A stretch of 64,000 nucleotides of DNA, taken from NCBI RefSeq assembly GCF_054482525.1, contig NZ_CM137006.1; one strand, 5' to 3'. The notes below the pieces were generated by a model. The model did no database searches. It saw only the letters and a list, made by a program, of their open reading frames with translations, and was not told where the DNA came from. This document shows positions 21,202-64,000 of this stretch, piece after piece (the stretch's first letter is position 1; every line of letters starts with the position of its first letter). The position numbers were made by a program, and so were the translations under genes.

Positions 21202-21927
21202 ATGAATAAACCAACTTTAACAATAGTTACCGTTGTGTACAATGGCGAAATGTATATCGAAGATACTATAAAAAGTGTCTTATCACAAAACTGCAATGAT
21301 GACATTGAATATATTATAATTGATGGTGCATCAACGGATAATACTCTAAATATTGTTAATTCTTACAAAAATGAAATTTCATATATCATTTCTGAAAATG
21401 ATAATGGTATATATGATGCAATGAATAAAGGTGTGTTAAAAGCATCTGGAAATTATATAGGATTTATAAACGCTGATGATTTTTATAATAAAGATGTATT
21501 ATGTCAAGTAATAAAAGTAATGAAAGAAAATAAATATGATGTTATTTATGGAAATATGTCTTTGGTAGAGGCTGATAGCTTGGATGTTATTCAGGTCCGG
21601 AGGCCTAAAGACTGGAAACTACATATAGATATGAATTTAAGCCATCCGGCCACATTTATTAGAAAAGATATCCACAGAGAAAATTTATTTAATACTAGCT
21701 ATAAAATTGCTTCTGATTATGATCTTTTGCTAAAATTGAAGAAACAAGGTTATATCTTTCATTATATTGATAAAAATATCTCTTCGATGAGAAATGCCGG
21801 CCTTAGCGCTAAAAATGTAAAATTAGCATTGGAGGAAGCGAGACAAATCCGAAAGAAAAGAAACGGGAAATTATATGCGGCGTTAGCAGATATTTACCTA
21901 TTTATGAGAAAAGTTATAAAAAGATGA
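21202..21927 (+). CDS. Glycosyltransferase family 2 (WcaE-like)
   Basis: 241 aa; motifs IIDGASTDNT and [11 protein letters not shown] shared with WcaE (2355..3101). Confidence 0.8.
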   Translation: MNKPTLTIVTVVYNGEMYIEDTIKSVLSQNCNDDIEYIIIDGASTDNTLNIVNSYKNEISYIISENDNGIYDAMNKGVLKASGNYIGFINADDFYNKDVLCQVIKVMKENKYDVIYGNMSLVEADSLDVIQVRRPKDWKLHIDMNLSHPATFIRKDIHRENLFNTSYKIASDYDLLLKLKKQGYIFHYIDKNISSMRNAGLSAKNVKLALEEARQIRKKRNGKLYAALADIYLFMRKVIKR

Positions 21928-23159
21928 TTAATAGAAACATAAAAATTAGTGCTTCATTTATTTCAATAATTTATTTGCCTTTTGCTTTATTATTAGCAAT
22001 GATTGAAATGATTAATGGGGCCAGATGGAGTGTTTATGTATGTTCATTTATGCTAGGGGTACTAGCATTTTTGTTAATACCTTATGAAAATTGGGATTTG
22101 ACTAGGCATTATGAAACATATTTATATGTTAGTCAAACATCACTAAACAAAGTTTTTGAAAATAGTGACAATAGATATATTACAATAAATACTGTTATTT
22201 ATTTATTTAAATCTTTAGGAATAAAAAAAGAATTTTTACCTTTTTTTTCAACATTTTTATCATATATTTTTTATTTTAATATATATGTTAATCACATTAA
22301 AAAATACAATCCGGAATTATCTCATAGATGTATATATTTATATATTCTAATAAGCGTAATCCCATTTTTTGCTATAGCTAGTTCATTGCGGCAATATCTT
22401 GCATTTAGTATTATGCTTTATATGATCATACAGTATTTCACCAGTGAAAATAATAGGTATAAGTCACAAAAAATTATATTCTCTGCAATTATTTCATGTT
22501 GTATTCATCCCAGCGCAATACTATTGCTAGGTGTTTTTTTTGTTAGCAAATTAATAAGACTTAACAAAACAATATTGTATTTAATAATATTAGTTCTAAT
22601 CCTTAACCATGATGGATTAATATCTTCTTTGCTATTTCAATTGATTAGGCCATTATTGGAAAGCTTAGGTTTTTACTTTCCCGAATATATGGACTCTGTA
22701 ACCATAGGCATAAGCAATAGCTTGCTGAGCACTAATGAATATATCTTGAATAAGATCATATTACCGTCAGTGTTTTTTATTTTTACTTTTATCTATTTAA
22801 TTTTATTTAATAAAAAAATGACGAGGCAAGAGTCACAAATCAAAAATTTTTGCAGTTTACTTCTTTTGCTGATATGCCTTTTATCGTTATCGCCTGATTT
22901 ATTTTATCGATTTTCCATTTTCTGGGTGTTATTATATAGTTATATATTTTTCTCCTACGATATTAATAAAATTAGCAAACTATGTAAGCATCTGATCTTC
23001 TTAATACTCATTACCGCATGTTCAATCATAAATTTGGCACAGGCAAATATGGGTAAAGATATTATTTATGTGTCTTGGTGCGATATATTGTATAAGCCCT
23101 CATTATTCCTATTCAATAAAGAAGTTAAATCAGCAGAATATATAAGAGTGAGTCAATAA
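21924..23159 (+). CDS. wzy: O-antigen polymerase Wzy (putative)
   Basis: 411 aa, very hydrophobic, multiple TM helices, no soluble-enzyme motifs, very AT-rich; typical of Wzy in O-antigen clusters. Confidence 0.6.
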   Translation: MINRNIKISASFISIIYLPFALLLAMIEMINGARWSVYVCSFMLGVLAFLLIPYENWDLTRHYETYLYVSQTSLNKVFENSDNRYITINTVIYLFKSLGIKKEFLPFFSTFLSYIFYFNIYVNHIKKYNPELSHRCIYLYILISVIPFFAIASSLRQYLAFSIMLYMIIQYFTSENNRYKSQKIIFSAIISCCIHPSAILLLGVFFVSKLIRLNKTILYLIILVLILNHDGLISSLLFQLIRPLLESLGFYFPEYMDSVTIGISNSLLSTNEYILNKIILPSVFFIFTFIYLILFNKKMTRQESQIKNFCSLLLLLICLLSLSPDLFYRFSIFWVLLYSYIFFSYDINKISKLCKHLIFLILITACSIINLAQANMGKDIIYVSWCDILYKPSLFLFNKEVKSAEYIRVSQ

Positions 23160-30368: not shown

Positions 30369-31127
30369 TTGGATGTTAAAATGAAAGTCAGTATTATTAC
30401 AGTGACTTATAATAGTGAAAAGACTTTAAGGGATACTTTAGAGTCAATAGAGTTGCAAACCTATAAAGATATAGAGTATATAATTATTGATGGTGGTTCT
30501 ACAGATAATACGTTAAAACTAATTAACGAAGTATCAACAAGAGTAACCAAATGTCTATCAGAAAGCGATAACGGTATCTATGATGCTTTAAATAAAGGTA
30601 TAAATTTATCTACGGGAGATATTATTGGATTCGTTCATTCTGATGACCTTTTAGCAAGACCTGATATTATTGAAACTATTGTAAGCCGTTTCCATGAGAC
30701 AAAAGCGGATGTTGTATACGGTGATTTGGTTTTTTTCGAAAAAAACCAAACTGATATAATCAAACGATACTGGCGTAGTGGTCCTTTTAAACGTTCTAAG
30801 CTATCATTAGGCTGGGCACCACCGCATCCATCTTTCTATATGAGGAGGGAATTATATAAAGACGATGGATATTTTGATTTATCCTATAGGATTGCTGCAG
30901 ACTATGATCAGATGGTCAGGATTTTGAAACGTGATGATATTAAAGTTATTTATGTTCCTCAAGTATTTGTAAAGATGAGATTGGGTGGGGAAAGTACCAG
31001 AATTGATAACGCGATATCAAGTACAAAGGAAATTGTAGAAGTTATGAAAAACCATAATGTAAATTGGAAAATTGCTATCATTATCAGAAAAATCTCAAAA
31101 CTAATGCAATTGTTTGCGCATAAATAA
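30369..31127 (+). CDS. Glycosyltransferase family 2 (WcaE-like), inserted between manC and manB
   Basis: 252 aa; IIDGGSTDNT and DNGIYDALNKG motifs; start may be the internal Met at 30381. Confidence 0.8.
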   Translation: MDVKMKVSIITVTYNSEKTLRDTLESIELQTYKDIEYIIIDGGSTDNTLKLINEVSTRVTKCLSESDNGIYDALNKGINLSTGDIIGFVHSDDLLARPDIIETIVSRFHETKADVVYGDLVFFEKNQTDIIKRYWRSGPFKRSKLSLGWAPPHPSFYMRRELYKDDGYFDLSYRIAADYDQMVRILKRDDIKVIYVPQVFVKMRLGGESTRIDNAISSTKEIVEVMKNHNVNWKIAIIIRKISKLMQLFAHK

Positions 31128-43895: not shown

Positions 43896-43930
43896 TAAAA
43901 AAGCCCCCGGAAGATGATCTTCCGGGGGCT
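43896..43930 (-). terminator. his operon attenuator (leader terminator hairpin)
   Basis: Minus-strand reading gives gcccccggaag-loop-cttccgggggc followed by a U-run, between hisL and hisG. Confidence 0.8.
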
Positions 43931-43993
43931 TACTCATGCGTTCATGCACCACTGGAAGATCTGAATGTCTTCCAGCACACATCGCCTGAAAGA

Positions 43994-53561: not shown

Positions 53562-53661
53562 TTCCTGTTTTATTCAATGAGGGTTGCCCGGCAACCCTCA
53601 TTGCTCATTGATTCTTTTCTGTGTATCACCGTCATCATTCCCATCTGATAACCTATTGAAA

Positions 53662-57803: not shown

Positions 57804-57825
57804 GAGCGTTGGTAATTAGAAAGCA

Positions 57826-57853
57826 AAAAGCCTGCTTGAAAGCAGGCTTTTTT
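57826..57853. terminator. Bidirectional terminator between ldtA and asnV
   Basis: Hairpin aagcctgctt-gaa-agcaggctt with T6 downstream and A5 upstream. Confidence 0.7.
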
Positions 57854-57858
57854 GAATT

Positions 57859-57934
57859 TGGCTCCTCTGACTGGACTCGAACCAGTGACATACGGATTAA
57901 CAGTCCGCCGTTCTACCGACTGAACTACAGAGGA
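57859..57934 (-). tRNA. asnV: tRNA-Asn (GUU)
   Basis: 76-nt sequence whose reverse complement is TCCTCTGTAGTTCAGTCGGTAGAACGGCGGACTGTTAATCCGTATGTCACTGGTTCGAGTCCAGTCAGAGGAGCCA; cloverleaf with GTT anticodon and CCA end. Confidence 0.95.
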
Positions 57935-60267: not shown

Positions 60268-60343
60268 TGGCTCCTCTGACTGGACTCGAACCAGTGACAT
60301 ACGGATTAACAGTCCGCCGTTCTACCGACTGAACTACAGAGGA
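60268..60343 (-). tRNA. asnU: tRNA-Asn (GUU)
   Basis: Identical 76-nt sequence to 57859..57934. Confidence 0.95.
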
Positions 60344-61991: not shown

Positions 61992-62044
61992 ACGACAAAA
62001 TGCAGATTATTTCAGCAAACGATTTCAAATTTAAAAAACAGGCT

Positions 62045-62073
62045 TTGACATTGTGGATGGGCATCGCTAATAT
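62045..62073 (+). promoter_or_regulatory. Sigma-70 promoter of asnW (TTGACA-17 bp-TAATAT, GC-rich discriminator)
   Basis: ctttgacattgtggatgggcatcgctaatattcgcctcg read directly ~20 bp upstream of the tRNA. Confidence 0.7.
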
Positions 62074-62091
62074 TCGCCTCGTTCTCACGAT

Positions 62092-62167
62092 TCCTCTGTA
62101 GTTCAGTCGGTAGAACGGCGGACTGTTAATCCGTATGTCACTGGTTCGAGTCCAGTCAGAGGAGCCA
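62092..62167 (+). tRNA. asnW: tRNA-Asn (GUU)
   Basis: Third identical copy, opposite orientation to the other two. Confidence 0.95.
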
Positions 62168-62328
62168 AATTCAAGTTTTCATGCTTATCTGTACGTCTCT
62201 ATTTGTTTACGATTCAGTAAGTTAGCGTGAAAATCCTTCCCAGTGCGTATCTGGTTTTCTCTCTGCATCGGGATAATTTGGTGGTCAGATCTGGGGTCAG
62301 TTTGGTTCGATTCTGGAGTGACCCCCAA

Positions 62329-63591
62329 ATGTCTTTAAACGATTCTAAAATCCGCAAGTTAAAACCCTCTTCCCGTCCGGTAAAACTCTCCGACTCTCAC
62401 GGTCTGTATCTGCTCGTCAATCCGGGCGGTTCACGCATCTGGTATCTCAAATATCGTTTCAACGGAAAAGAATCCAGAGTCAGTCTTGGCGCATACCCGC
62501 TTGTCTCACTGGCAGAAGCCAGGCAACAGCGCGACGGTATCCGTAAGTTACTGGCGCAGAATATCAACCCGGCGCAGCAGCGCATGGCGGAGGAAGCGGC
62601 CTGCTCCCCTGAAAAGTGCTTTAAGGCAGTGGCGCTGGCCTGGCACAAAACCAACAAAAAATGGTCGGCTGATTATGCCGCCCGTATTCTCGCCAGTATG
62701 GAAAACCATATCTTCCCGGCGATTGGTCATCTGCCCGTTGCCACTCTTAAAACGCAGGATTTCACTGCTTTGTTGCGGGTTATCGAGGATAAAGGCTTTC
62801 TGGAAGTCGCGTCCCGAACCCGGCAGCAACTCAGCAACATCATGCGCTATGCCGTTCAGCAGGGGCTTACCGAAAGCAATCCGGCGCAGCATCTGGATGG
62901 CGTTGTCGCCTCACCCGTAAAGAACCACTACCCCGCGTTACTGCTGGAGCGGTTGCCCGAACTGCTTGGCCGCATCGGTGACTATCAGCAGGGCCGGGAG
63001 TTAACACGGCTGGCGGTGGTGCTGACGTTGCACCTGTTTATCCGTTCCAGCGAACTGCGTTTCGCCCGCTGGAGCGAGATCGATTTCAGGCACAAAATCT
63101 GGACCATCCCCGCCACCCGCGAGGCAATCGACAAAGTACGGTTTTCGGGGCGTGGCGCAAAAATACGTACCCCGCATATCGTGCCGCTCTCCCGCCAGGC
63201 GATTGCCATTCTGAAACAGATACAGGAGCTTTCCGGCCATCTGGATCTGGTGTTTCCCGGTGATCATAACTCGTACAAGCCAATGAGTGAAAACACCACC
63301 AACCGGGCGCTACGCCTGATGGGGTATGATACGAAAACTGAAATCTGCGGGCATGGACTCAGGGCGATGGCCTGTAGCGCCCTGGTGGAATCGGAGCTGT
63401 GGTCACGCGATACGGTGGAGCGGCAAATGAGCCACCAGGAGCGTAACAGCGTGCGGGCAGCCTATGTGCATAAAGCGGAGCATCTGGAGGCCAGAAAGGC
63501 CATGATGCAGTGGTGGTCGGATTATCTGGATGTGTGCCGCGAGGGGTATGTTGCGCCGTACATTTATGCCCGGCAGCATAAGGCAGCCTGA
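62329..63591 (+). CDS. P4-type tyrosine integrase (phage integrase family) adjacent to tRNA-Asn
   Basis: ORF 62227..63591; start at MSLNDSKIRKLKP (420 aa); N-terminal P4-integrase-like domain; C-terminal catalytic region with R...HxxR...Y context (HGLRAMACS..., RAAYVH). Confidence 0.9.
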   Translation: MSLNDSKIRKLKPSSRPVKLSDSHGLYLLVNPGGSRIWYLKYRFNGKESRVSLGAYPLVSLAEARQQRDGIRKLLAQNINPAQQRMAEEAACSPEKCFKAVALAWHKTNKKWSADYAARILASMENHIFPAIGHLPVATLKTQDFTALLRVIEDKGFLEVASRTRQQLSNIMRYAVQQGLTESNPAQHLDGVVASPVKNHYPALLLERLPELLGRIGDYQQGRELTRLAVVLTLHLFIRSSELRFARWSEIDFRHKIWTIPATREAIDKVRFSGRGAKIRTPHIVPLSRQAIAILKQIQELSGHLDLVFPGDHNSYKPMSENTTNRALRLMGYDTKTEICGHGLRAMACSALVESELWSRDTVERQMSHQERNSVRAAYVHKAEHLEARKAMMQWWSDYLDVCREGYVAPYIYARQHKAA

Positions 63592-64000
63592 ATCAGAAAT
63601 AGCGGAAATCATTAAAAATGTAAAAGCAGATCCTGATTGACCGGGATCTGCTTATTGTATTGAGAAGTATTACCATTTTTCTGTTATTATCAATCGGAAA
63701 GTATCTAAAAATATTTGTCCCCAAATAATTTTGGTGAAAACCAATCAATAAACCATTTATCAATAGGTAAGTACCGGAAATTATTCCAGTAGAATATTTT
63801 CAGGCGATTGCCTATTAATAAATACATTATTGATAGATAAGTGCCTTCTGTGATTTGCCCGCAAATCACAGAAGATGAAAACCTATCAATACGGGATATT
63901 TTCACGGAAATACCAATTAATACTCCAGAATATCTCCTGACCATATACTCTGAAACCTGTAAGAACTGCATCAGATATTGAGAGACCATATAGATATAAG

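Follow-up and report, generated by a model that had tools for sequence, protein, structure and literature searches.

A palindrome array between two convergent recombinase genes

In a 64,000-nucleotide stretch of contig NZ_CM137006.1 (RefSeq assembly GCF_054482525.1; hereafter the window), the perfect palindrome P1 (CTTCTGTGATTTGC-CC-GCAAATCACAGAAG, positions 63845-63874) is one unit of an array of palindromes, not a lone operator. The array occupies the AT-rich spacer between two convergent recombinase genes at the left end of a genomic island. We tentatively favour, with somewhat less than even confidence, the explanation that its units are hairpin modules in which pairing, and not sequence, has been maintained, and that the palindromes have been perfected at least partly by fold-back templating.

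The original prediction, made from the letters of the window alone, had placed the perfect inverted repeat ttctgtgatttgc-cc-gcaaatcacagaa at 63846-63873. The sequence is present at that position and the repeat is indeed perfect, but its arms measure 14 bp rather than the 13 bp first given, with one more base on each side (14 + 2 + 14 = 30 bp). P1 is far beyond chance: it is the sole copy in the 64-kb window, 0 matches are expected at up to three mismatches (100 shuffles), and shuffling the 600 bp of AT-rich DNA around it 2,000 times gave perfect arms of at most 11 bp. Occurrence at random frequency and location inside a verified coding sequence had been named as grounds for dismissing the repeat; P1 was never matched in the shuffles and lies outside any verified coding sequence. 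It was correctly located downstream of the integrase, starting 254 bp past the integrase stop (63591) and 192 bp past the integrase terminator hairpin (63624-63653). The DNA around it is AT-rich, as had been said (32-36% GC), but is not the start of the island, which begins at a tRNA-Asn gene (62092-62167); it is the spacer between the two recombinase genes.

The window ends 126 bases past the palindrome, and the sequence beyond was read from the Escherichia coli PCN033 record (L001; window coordinate = L001 + 41999), to which window positions 62000-64000 are 100% identical over the 2 kb compared. A second module, ~70 bp past the window end, contains a 36-bp perfect palindrome, CACCTTCCGTGATTAACATGTTAATCACGGAAGGTG (P2; L001 22071-22106). 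The P1 and P2 modules, of 131 nt each and 228 bp apart, are 73% identical and carry their palindromes at the same relative position, and the ~50 bp lying 3' of the two palindromes are nearly alike (GRTGAAAAsCTATCAATA...GATATTTTCACGGAAwTACCAmTTAATAC). Other lineages present further palindrome types at equivalent positions, with arms of 13-26 bp and, in most cases, a related flank 3' of the palindrome. These include P2', with the centre GC (STEFF_1); P3, (A/G)TTTTGATTTGCATGCAAATCAAAA(T/C) (NY1601 and MFDS1019527); and P0, AAAATTATTCAC-(CA/TG/CG)-GTGAATAATTTT, whose arms measure 11-15 bp in most lineages but 26 bp in APEC O78/WCHEC, where the perfect palindrome spans 54 bp. In the window, the P0 position (63688-63750) has decayed, with 15 of 30 positions complementary, and is followed by the flank motif TGAAAACCAATCAATA. 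Between P0 and P1 lies a quasi-palindrome, R (63744-63834), with 43-nt arms that are 77% complementary about a centre near 63789, and the dyad centres of P0, R and P1 are spaced ~70 bp apart; another quasi-palindrome, Q, sits between the modules. Two Salmonella islands hold further modules with related flanks and other palindromes, such as CGTACAAAAAATTTTGG-CC-CCAAAATTTTTTGTACG, and only the terminator-proximal part of the Salmonella and E. coli arrays aligns.

At least five perfect palindromes with arms of at least 13 bp are found inside 700 bp; arms of 14, 18 and 26 bp were seen, and the extent of perfect pairing is lineage-specific. Modules have been gained, lost, fused and decayed between lineages. 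E. albertii is without P1 and P2, ESDR8 carries a 70-bp deletion, and E. whittamii (L011 2380-2480) has a single hybrid module that combines a P1-type palindrome with a module-2-type right flank and that could be the product of a deletion between two modules or the ancestral single-module state. No description of the array was found in the literature searched.

Other palindromes were noted in and around this locus. Past the window end, at L001 22748-22797, the spacer contains AGTGATTAC-N(1-4)-GTAATCACT, which has a GTGATTA half-site in common with P2, lies directly downstream of a minus-strand promoter-like site (TTAACC-17-TATTAT) and is present in four of the 11 E. coli spacers scanned (PCN033, ESDR8, STEFF_1/E67 and MFDS1019527). 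A record of Salmonella serovar India labelled as a plasmid (L079 1298-1346) holds a 49-bp perfect palindrome with 24-bp arms, AAATGTAGTAATTGTATGTTGTAT-G-ATAC…, upstream of a P4-type integrase, between the integrase and another PF12834-type gene. Within the window, four further perfect palindromes have arms of at least 11 bp (30725-30750, 43901-43931, 53575-53603 and 57825-57852), and at least the last of these (AAAAAGCCTGCTTGAAAGCAGGCTTTTT) resembles a bidirectional terminator.

Module architecture and predicted fold

P1 forms the inner stem of a composite module. The outer stem, of 9 bp, pairs TATTGATAG (63828-63836) with CTATCAATA (63883-63891), and an 8x8 internal mismatch zone separates the two stems. 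On its left side this zone reads ATAAGTGC (63837-63844), with the lineage variants ATAACTAC and GTAACAGT; on its right side, ATGAAAAC (63875-63882) is a GRTGAAAAC-like motif, which follows most palindromes of the array in one variant or another (GATGAAAAC, GGTGAAAAG, GGCGAAAAC, GGTGAAAAT and GGTGGAAAT). The outer stem is succeeded by a non-palindromic tail, cgGGATATTTTCACGGAAATACCAATTAATAC (63892-63923), that is recognisable, with substitutions, after most modules, and a version of which is also found 3' of a P0-type palindrome in an aspV-linked island. Overall, the inverted repeat around P1 has 42-nt arms that are 71% complementary.

The predicted fold of this region (141 nt) comprises the 9-bp outer stem, the 8x8 internal loop and the inner stem, in which P1 adopts a 13-bp stem with a 4-nt loop (-18.3 kcal/mol as RNA, z = -7.1; -12.3 kcal/mol as DNA, z = -7.8). 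The folds computed across the array range in z from -7 to -12, with energies of -18.3 and -27.4 kcal/mol for RNA and of -12.3, -17.8 and -27.5 kcal/mol for DNA. The composite layout of P1 is repeated in the P2' module of STEFF_1 and is imperfect in P3 and P0.

Arm covariation, probable template switching and local divergence

The 12 distinct B-type palindromes (P1, P2 and P3 types) have only TGATT-N8-AATCA in common, a core that is invariant across the P1, P2, P2' and P3 variants. Two-sided change was detected in seven of their 16 arm pairs, counts that do not represent independent events, and 93.8% of cells were paired; the covariation score was reached by 0 of 500 shuffles, and slid controls yielded at most one pair, with 33-39% of cells paired. 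Some two-sided changes are recent: L053 carries CCATG...CATGG at a site where WCHEC has changed in the right arm alone, and in Q it shows a further paired change (A>C / T>G). Wobble-compatible mismatches did not point to a putative RNA strand, the events being too few and divided between the strands.

In APEC O78/WCHEC, the mismatch zone of P0 has had its left side replaced by the exact complement of the conserved right side, an overwriting that lifts complementarity from 19-24 to 29 of 30 positions. Quasipalindrome template switching is documented in E. coli (PMC7202029), and the overwriting of the P0 arm bears its signature.

Divergence was assessed in four close lineages (PCN033, WCHEC, TUM9757 and ESDR8). 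Differences affect 3-6% of sites in the module region and 7-17% of the 4-fold sites of the integrase gene; at the 4-fold sites of the PF12835 gene the differences amount to ~25% in one within-group pair and to 16-29% over all pairs. P1 and P2 are local minima of divergence (~3%) in a spacer that elsewhere reaches 12-40%, and together they present 0-3 differences in 66 positions per pair, against the 8-16 predicted from the 4-fold sites of the flanking genes (12-16% and 21-29%). Overall, the evidence for constraint is mixed, suggestive but not decisive.

A hairpin module as the favoured explanation

Arm complementarity has been kept and arm sequence has not, from which we infer that the element acts when one strand folds. 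The P1 unit, read 5' to 3' on the + strand, comprises a 9-bp outer stem, an 8x8 zone with a GRTGAAAAC-like 3' side, a perfect inner stem and a tail of ~32 bp; across the array the inner stems measure 13-26 bp, and their sequences vary from unit to unit and from lineage to lineage. Folding might take place in RNA, giving a hairpin if the spacer is transcribed, or in DNA that is supercoiled or briefly single-stranded, giving a hairpin or a cruciform, and any sequence-specific recognition would fall on the bubble and the tail, not on the palindrome. The perfection of the arms would be kept, at least in part, by fold-back (template-switch) copying between them. As for its role, one speculation is that the module is a cis structural element in the 3' region common to both convergent recombinase genes, with an effect on transcript processing or stability, or on read-through. 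Folding in vivo, the strand or molecule that folds and the downstream role are all things that we infer. The presence of several different palindromes in one spacer (P0, P1, Q and P2, with P2' and P3 in other lineages and PS in Salmonella) does not fit a single cognate regulator, and arms of 14-26 bp, of an extent that varies with the lineage, are more than the contacts of a dimeric protein.

Several observations weigh against the hairpin-module explanation. The folded state is deduced from symmetry; P1, P2 and P3 are related by descent; and symmetric divergence can come from arm-to-arm conversion alone, without selection. Uncompensated mismatches persist in some lineages: the P2 of eight metagenome contigs reads GATTCAC, L041 carries two mismatches, and L046/L066 have one, which affects the innermost pair. 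The outer stem is absent from module 2 of PCN033, and the composite architecture is not universal. In deeper lineages the modules are 23-41% diverged, compared with 16-29% at 4-fold sites, which is neutral-like, and because the islands are mosaic and multi-copy, a recently shared or converted segment could explain the low divergence among close lineages. Lastly, many islands with both recombinases intact are without modules, so that any role of the modules would be accessory.

Distribution and island context

Of the 5,426 complete E. coli genomes scanned, 450 carry the module, typically at a single place (median 1 per genome, maximum 4) and always on the chromosome, and all copies sampled from these genomes lie in this island spacer. 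It was unmatched in 50,697 phage records, and the sole match in 72,556 plasmid records was to a short stretch of a neighbouring AAGGG element. A pattern of the conserved outer arms, scanned against 100,044 species genomes, returned one related match (E. whittamii) and six unrelated single palindromes, with Escherichia as the sole carrier genus in the scan. A palindrome-independent scan of metagenomes for the flank motif (tail pattern) returned only E. coli-like contigs and unrelated chance matches.

The island end that carries the array follows the order yeeO, tRNA-Asn, P4-type integrase, terminator hairpin and a 1.36-kb unannotated spacer (32-47% GC). The tRNA-Asn gene (GTT; 62092-62167, + strand), in the asnW position beside yeeO, is the island attachment site. 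The P4-type tyrosine integrase (62329-63591, + strand; 420 aa) is intact, with Arm-DNA-bind_3, Phage_int_M and Phage_integrase domains, and its terminator hairpin (63624-63653, + strand; AAGCAGATCC...GGATCTGCTT, then T-rich) marks the integrase-proximal edge of the array and is kept in all genera examined. At its far end the spacer meets a convergent gene, frameshifted in PCN033, whose 294-aa product is a PF12834 + PF12835 tyrosine recombinase. Beyond it come an EFASI RNA, a Ner-like HTH_35 gene, C4, isrK and c4-a1b1 RNAs, an Rhs toxin cassette and then yeeN. The same left end is found at asnT, asnU/V/W, aspV and the Val-Lys tRNA cluster in other E. coli, with type VI secretion system (T6SS) or Rhs cargo, and related islands often number 2-4 per genome.

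Some features of this context deserve mention in their own right. The window has three tRNA-Asn genes, in the asnV, asnU and asnW positions, inside a span of 4.3 kb (57859-57934, - strand; 60268-60343, - strand; and 62092-62167, + strand); related islands use any of the three, and inversions between them occur elsewhere, as in the gene order of TUM9757. The EFASI RNA (100.8 bits; L001 23702-23829, - strand) is directly upstream of the PF12834/PF12835 gene, and the C4 antisense RNA, isrK and c4-a1b1 (L001 25262-25447, - strand) are upstream of the operon of a 153-aa open reading frame (ORF) and the Ner-like gene. By analogy, this RNA set looks like a phage P1/P4-style immunity module within a T6SS/Rhs island.

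The PF12834/PF12835 recombinase is widespread in the Enterobacteriaceae (72-90% identity), and its gene is usually convergent with that of a P4-type integrase and preceded by the HTH_35 gene and the 153-aa ORF. In Salmonella (L022-24), Klebsiella (L021) and E. albertii (L070), the spacer spans 190-240 bp and has no such palindrome, with both recombinases intact; an Enterobacter island (L077) has the same minimal spacer without a palindrome, an intact PF12835 gene and a P4-type integrase called in two pieces. These minimal spacers hold only an AAGGG-rich conserved element and the integrase terminator, and it is between these two that the module DNA is inserted in Escherichia and some Salmonella. 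Hence the modules are additional DNA and are not obligatory for either recombinase. In other genera, the slot between the recombinases holds cargo genes.

The AAGGG-rich block (L001 22290-22420: …TAAGGGTAACAGCGCCwGACCGGAAAGGGCC…, followed by CTGGYRCAG direct repeats; equivalents at L022 6930-7030 and L021 2900-3050) is the sole conserved non-coding sequence between the recombinases in the four genera aligned (Escherichia, Salmonella, Klebsiella and Citrobacter) and in an Enterobacter-like metagenome contig. The block is a candidate for the true cis site of the PF12834/PF12835 recombinase; no RNA covariation was found in it. The PF12835 recombinase itself has no solved relative by sequence and gives only a weak XerC-like match, so that no prediction of its site is possible.

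Cargo was also observed downstream of the PF12834/PF12835 gene in Citrobacter and Lonsdalea (L019 7636-10646, L076 5124-8345 and L074 5284-6015). It is defence-like, comprising NA-iREase2 with RelA_SpoT, HATPase_c_3 with Peptidase_U49, and a 243-aa ORF, and suggests that this position is a variable cargo site. In E. albertii (L072 4914-5338), four CGTTACGCAGTAACG hairpins in both orientations bracket a 95-aa ORF by the second recombinase gene, and in E. coli one copy of CGTTACGCAGTAACG lies at the recombinase stop (L001 22913-22927). Integron-like capture at hairpins, suggested by these E. albertii copies and by the duplicated terminator around the C. braakii cargo, was rejected for C. braakii, where the duplication is explained by the remnant of another integrase 3' end, through tandem accretion.

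Alternative explanations

That the palindromes are duplex DNA sites for a dimeric or tetrameric protein is a serious alternative, though rather unlikely. Such a site would be either a TGATT-N8-AATCA operator or the core site of a tyrosine recombinase, for which P1, P2 and P3 can be read as 10-8-10 (TTCYGTGATT / N8 / AATCACRGAA) with conserved arms and a variable centre; the differing centres would make P1, P2 and P3 heterospecific. The invariance of the TGATT-N8-AATCA core across P1, P2, P2' and P3 agrees with this explanation, as do the same GTGATTA half-site in the AGTGATTAC/GTAATCACT palindrome by a promoter-like site of the spacer, the 28-30-bp size and the place between two recombinase genes, which match lox/dif/FRT geometry, and the fact that island-encoded Ner-family proteins bind palindromes. 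The common core may, however, merely reflect the shared descent of paralogous modules, and the unrelated palindromes P0, Q and PS stand at equivalent module positions. The central 8 bp are palindromic, which is needless for a crossover region, and the symmetry extends over arms of 18-26 bp. No other copy exists in the 64-kb window, and dedicated scans place the site in this spacer only. Islands with intact recombinase genes are without the site, from which its use by the cognate tyrosine recombinase appears improbable. An arm site of the P4-type integrase within its phage attachment site (attP) was rejected on position, P1 being 1.7 kb away from the tRNA core with the integrase gene in between.

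Nor do known operators match. As the original prediction had noted, the spacing is wrong for both CRP and LexA: in P1 the TGTGA and TCACA half-sites are 12 bp apart (TGTGA-TTTGCCCGCAAA-TCACA) where CRP needs 6, and CTGT and ACAG are 16 bp apart where LexA needs 8. A CRP site is TGTGA-N6-TCACA, of 22 bp and with half-site centres ~11 bp apart, and a LexA box is CTGT-N8-ACAG; P2 and P3 have CGTGA and TTTGA in place of the CRP half-site, and CTGT is absent from the other palindrome types. To our knowledge, and compared by eye, FNR-type, DnaA, IHF, LacI/GalR-type, P2/P4 Ogr/delta (TGT-N12-ACA), XerCD dif, hix and P1 parS sites likewise fit neither in spacing nor in sequence. The HTH_35 protein of the island matches Mu Ner (1neq, 1.3e-22) and EnrR (7f9h, 1.3e-19), but the published targets of the EnrR/Ner family, short and continuous AT-rich palindromes with the chromatin immunoprecipitation (ChIP) consensus AATAAATNATTTATT and the crystal core CTATAG (PMC9023278), do not resemble P1. 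Promoter-like sites were not enriched in the scan (6 found, 5.1 expected). The regulator-binding or recombination-associated site that had been proposed is neither supported nor excluded; several results lean against both a sequence-specific operator and a recombination site, with no positive support for either.

A second serious alternative, of similar probability and likewise doubtful, is that the array is a functionless relic, namely decaying accessory or cargo DNA in which quasi-palindromes have been repeatedly perfected by replication template switching, its low divergence being due to recent spread or to gene conversion between island copies in a genome. The one-step overwriting of the P0 arm, the gain, loss, fusion and decay of modules between lineages, and their absence from many intact islands are all in keeping with a relic. 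Uncompensated mismatches occur in lineages with recombinase pseudogenes, the divergence of deep lineages is neutral, and genomes often hold 2-4 related islands. In all four close lineages, however, P1 and P2 are divergence minima between far more diverged stretches, and to explain this by pure mosaicism takes special pleading. Template switching cannot explain the recurrence, Salmonella included, of a non-palindromic bubble motif and tail, and at least five perfect palindromes with arms of at least 13 bp in 700 bp would be extreme for neutral DNA.

A folded single-strand DNA site, attC-like or resembling an origin of transfer (oriT), for the PF12834/PF12835 recombinase or a helper enzyme is improbable, and it is just as improbable that the array consists of folded-strand recognition modules, each exposing a GRTGAAAAC-like motif in its bubble, which make the inter-recombinase slot a site of cargo exchange or mobilisation. 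Diverse inner stems, an outer stem and a bubble beside a recurring motif do recall the logic of attC, the cargo of the slot varies in other genera, an oriT would be compatible with the hairpin-plus-flank layout, and a tyrosine-recombinase-like relaxase acting on an inverted-repeat-rich oriT exists in Salmonella genomic island 1 (SGI1; PMC9299015). The island annotations, however, list no relaxase, IntI or HUH enzyme, a known nic consensus was not recognised, and the neighbouring genes have the Pfam domains of the P4-type integrase and of PF12834/PF12835. By eye, and with no dedicated scan, no attC R/L box consensus (RYYYAAC ... GTTRRRY) was visible in TATTGATAG/CTATCAATA, and an integron attC was rejected. 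Modules are absent from islands with intact recombinases, the duplicated junction of C. braakii is a remnant of another integrase, and the SGI1 oriT is upstream of mpsA and obligatory, unlike the modules. A search with Rfam 15 (cmscan, E up to 1) over L001 21500-25800 returned nothing in 21600-22950; its matches, EFASI, C4, isrK and c4-a1b1, lie elsewhere in the island.

An intrinsic or bidirectional terminator, or an insulator, for the convergent recombinase transcripts is very unlikely. P1 is a strong hairpin between convergent genes, and in Salmonella a T-rich stretch comes after the PS palindrome on the strand of the recombinase gene. The stem of P1, however, is AT-rich, and the sequence after it (GATGAAAACC on the + strand, GCACTTATCT on the - strand) has no T-run on either strand; a terminator scan of L001 21550-23000 called the integrase hairpin and two others, but neither P1 nor P2. 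At least four serial hairpins would be unneeded, and the minimal spacers manage with a single conserved terminator.

A minus-strand coding sequence or recent pseudogene is the least probable alternative and has been largely refuted: the strand does have, in a single frame, two stop-free runs (100 and 91 codons) divided by one stop (window 63705-63989; L001 22009-22242), modules 228 bp (76 codons) apart and, in the ESDR8 annotation, a 99-aa hypothetical protein across the site, but variable sites show no third-position excess (14/14/20 by codon position), indels of 14 bp, 70 bp and 1-2 bp break the frame differently in each lineage, no Pfam or PHROG family matches it, and among 5.8 billion proteins only near-identical, locus-specific Escherichia/Shigella ORFs of 63-126 aa were found. 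In dinucleotide shuffles, a longest run of at least 100 codons occurs in 6%, and a second-longest run of at least 91 codons in 24 of 3,000 (0.8%). The second run points to a mild avoidance of stop codons in this 33-36% GC DNA.

Comparison with known systems and implications

The array resembles the repetitive extragenic palindromic (REP) and bacterial interspersed mosaic elements (BIME) and the enterobacterial repetitive intergenic consensus (ERIC) in being made of non-coding hairpin units that can cluster between convergent genes and in which structure is conserved over coding signal. REP/BIME and ERIC elements probably work at the transcript level or as DNA structures bound by proteins. Whereas they exist as tens to hundreds of dispersed copies of one consensus, the array occurs at a median of one place per genome, is AT-rich and has a different perfect palindrome in each unit; on this count, and on its absence from plasmids and phages, a dispersed repeat or miniature inverted-repeat transposable element (MITE) was rejected. 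With loxP (13-8-13), FRT and dif (11-6-11) the array has in common a 28-34-bp site with inverted arms and a 6-8-bp centre beside recombinase genes, but its centre is palindromic, its arms reach up to 26 bp and unrelated palindromes take equivalent positions. Integron attC sites likewise form arrays of imperfect hairpins, diverse in sequence and conserved in structure, with outer boxes, a central bubble and reading of the folded strand; unlike them, the array has no IntI, GTTRRRY box consensus or cassette ORFs, and its inner stems are perfect, with no extrahelical bases.

Phage lambda sib, an RNase III hairpin downstream of int, is single and overlaps a terminator. The hairpins of the array similarly lie beyond an integrase terminator and could act only on read-through transcripts, but they are several and at least 190 bp past it. 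In the quasipalindrome hotspots of E. coli (PMC7202029), one arm templates the other and an imperfect palindrome becomes perfect in one event, as at P0; this is a mutational process, which explains perfection but neither the recurring non-palindromic flank nor local conservation. The mobilisation module of SGI1 consists of MpsA/MpsB, sgm-sRNA and an oriT with three inverted repeats (PMC9299015). It resembles the locus described here in combining a small atypical protein of the tyrosine recombinase family, a neighbouring non-coding RNA (here EFASI) and a non-coding region rich in inverted repeats, within an island that is tRNA-linked or chromosomal. It differs in that its oriT is upstream of mpsA and essential, where the modules are downstream, accessory and heterogeneous, and the PF12835 protein keeps an N-terminal SAM-like domain.

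For annotation, these results mean that P1 is not a CRP, LexA or Ner operator, as far as comparison of sites can tell, nor a terminator, and that the occasional 'hypothetical protein' calls across it are spurious. Even if the array is functionless, it would document fold-back template switching cleanly in natural E. coli populations, with quasi-palindromes converted to perfect ones as long as 54 bp and with paired arms that evolve in concert; the process is otherwise studied mostly with reporter constructs. If it is functional, it would constitute a cis element not described before, at the conserved left end shared by a large family of enterobacterial islands, an end formed by a P4-type integrase, the convergent PF12834/PF12835 recombinase with EFASI, a Ner-like regulator and C4/isrK RNAs, in islands that deliver T6SS, Rhs toxins and anti-phage systems.

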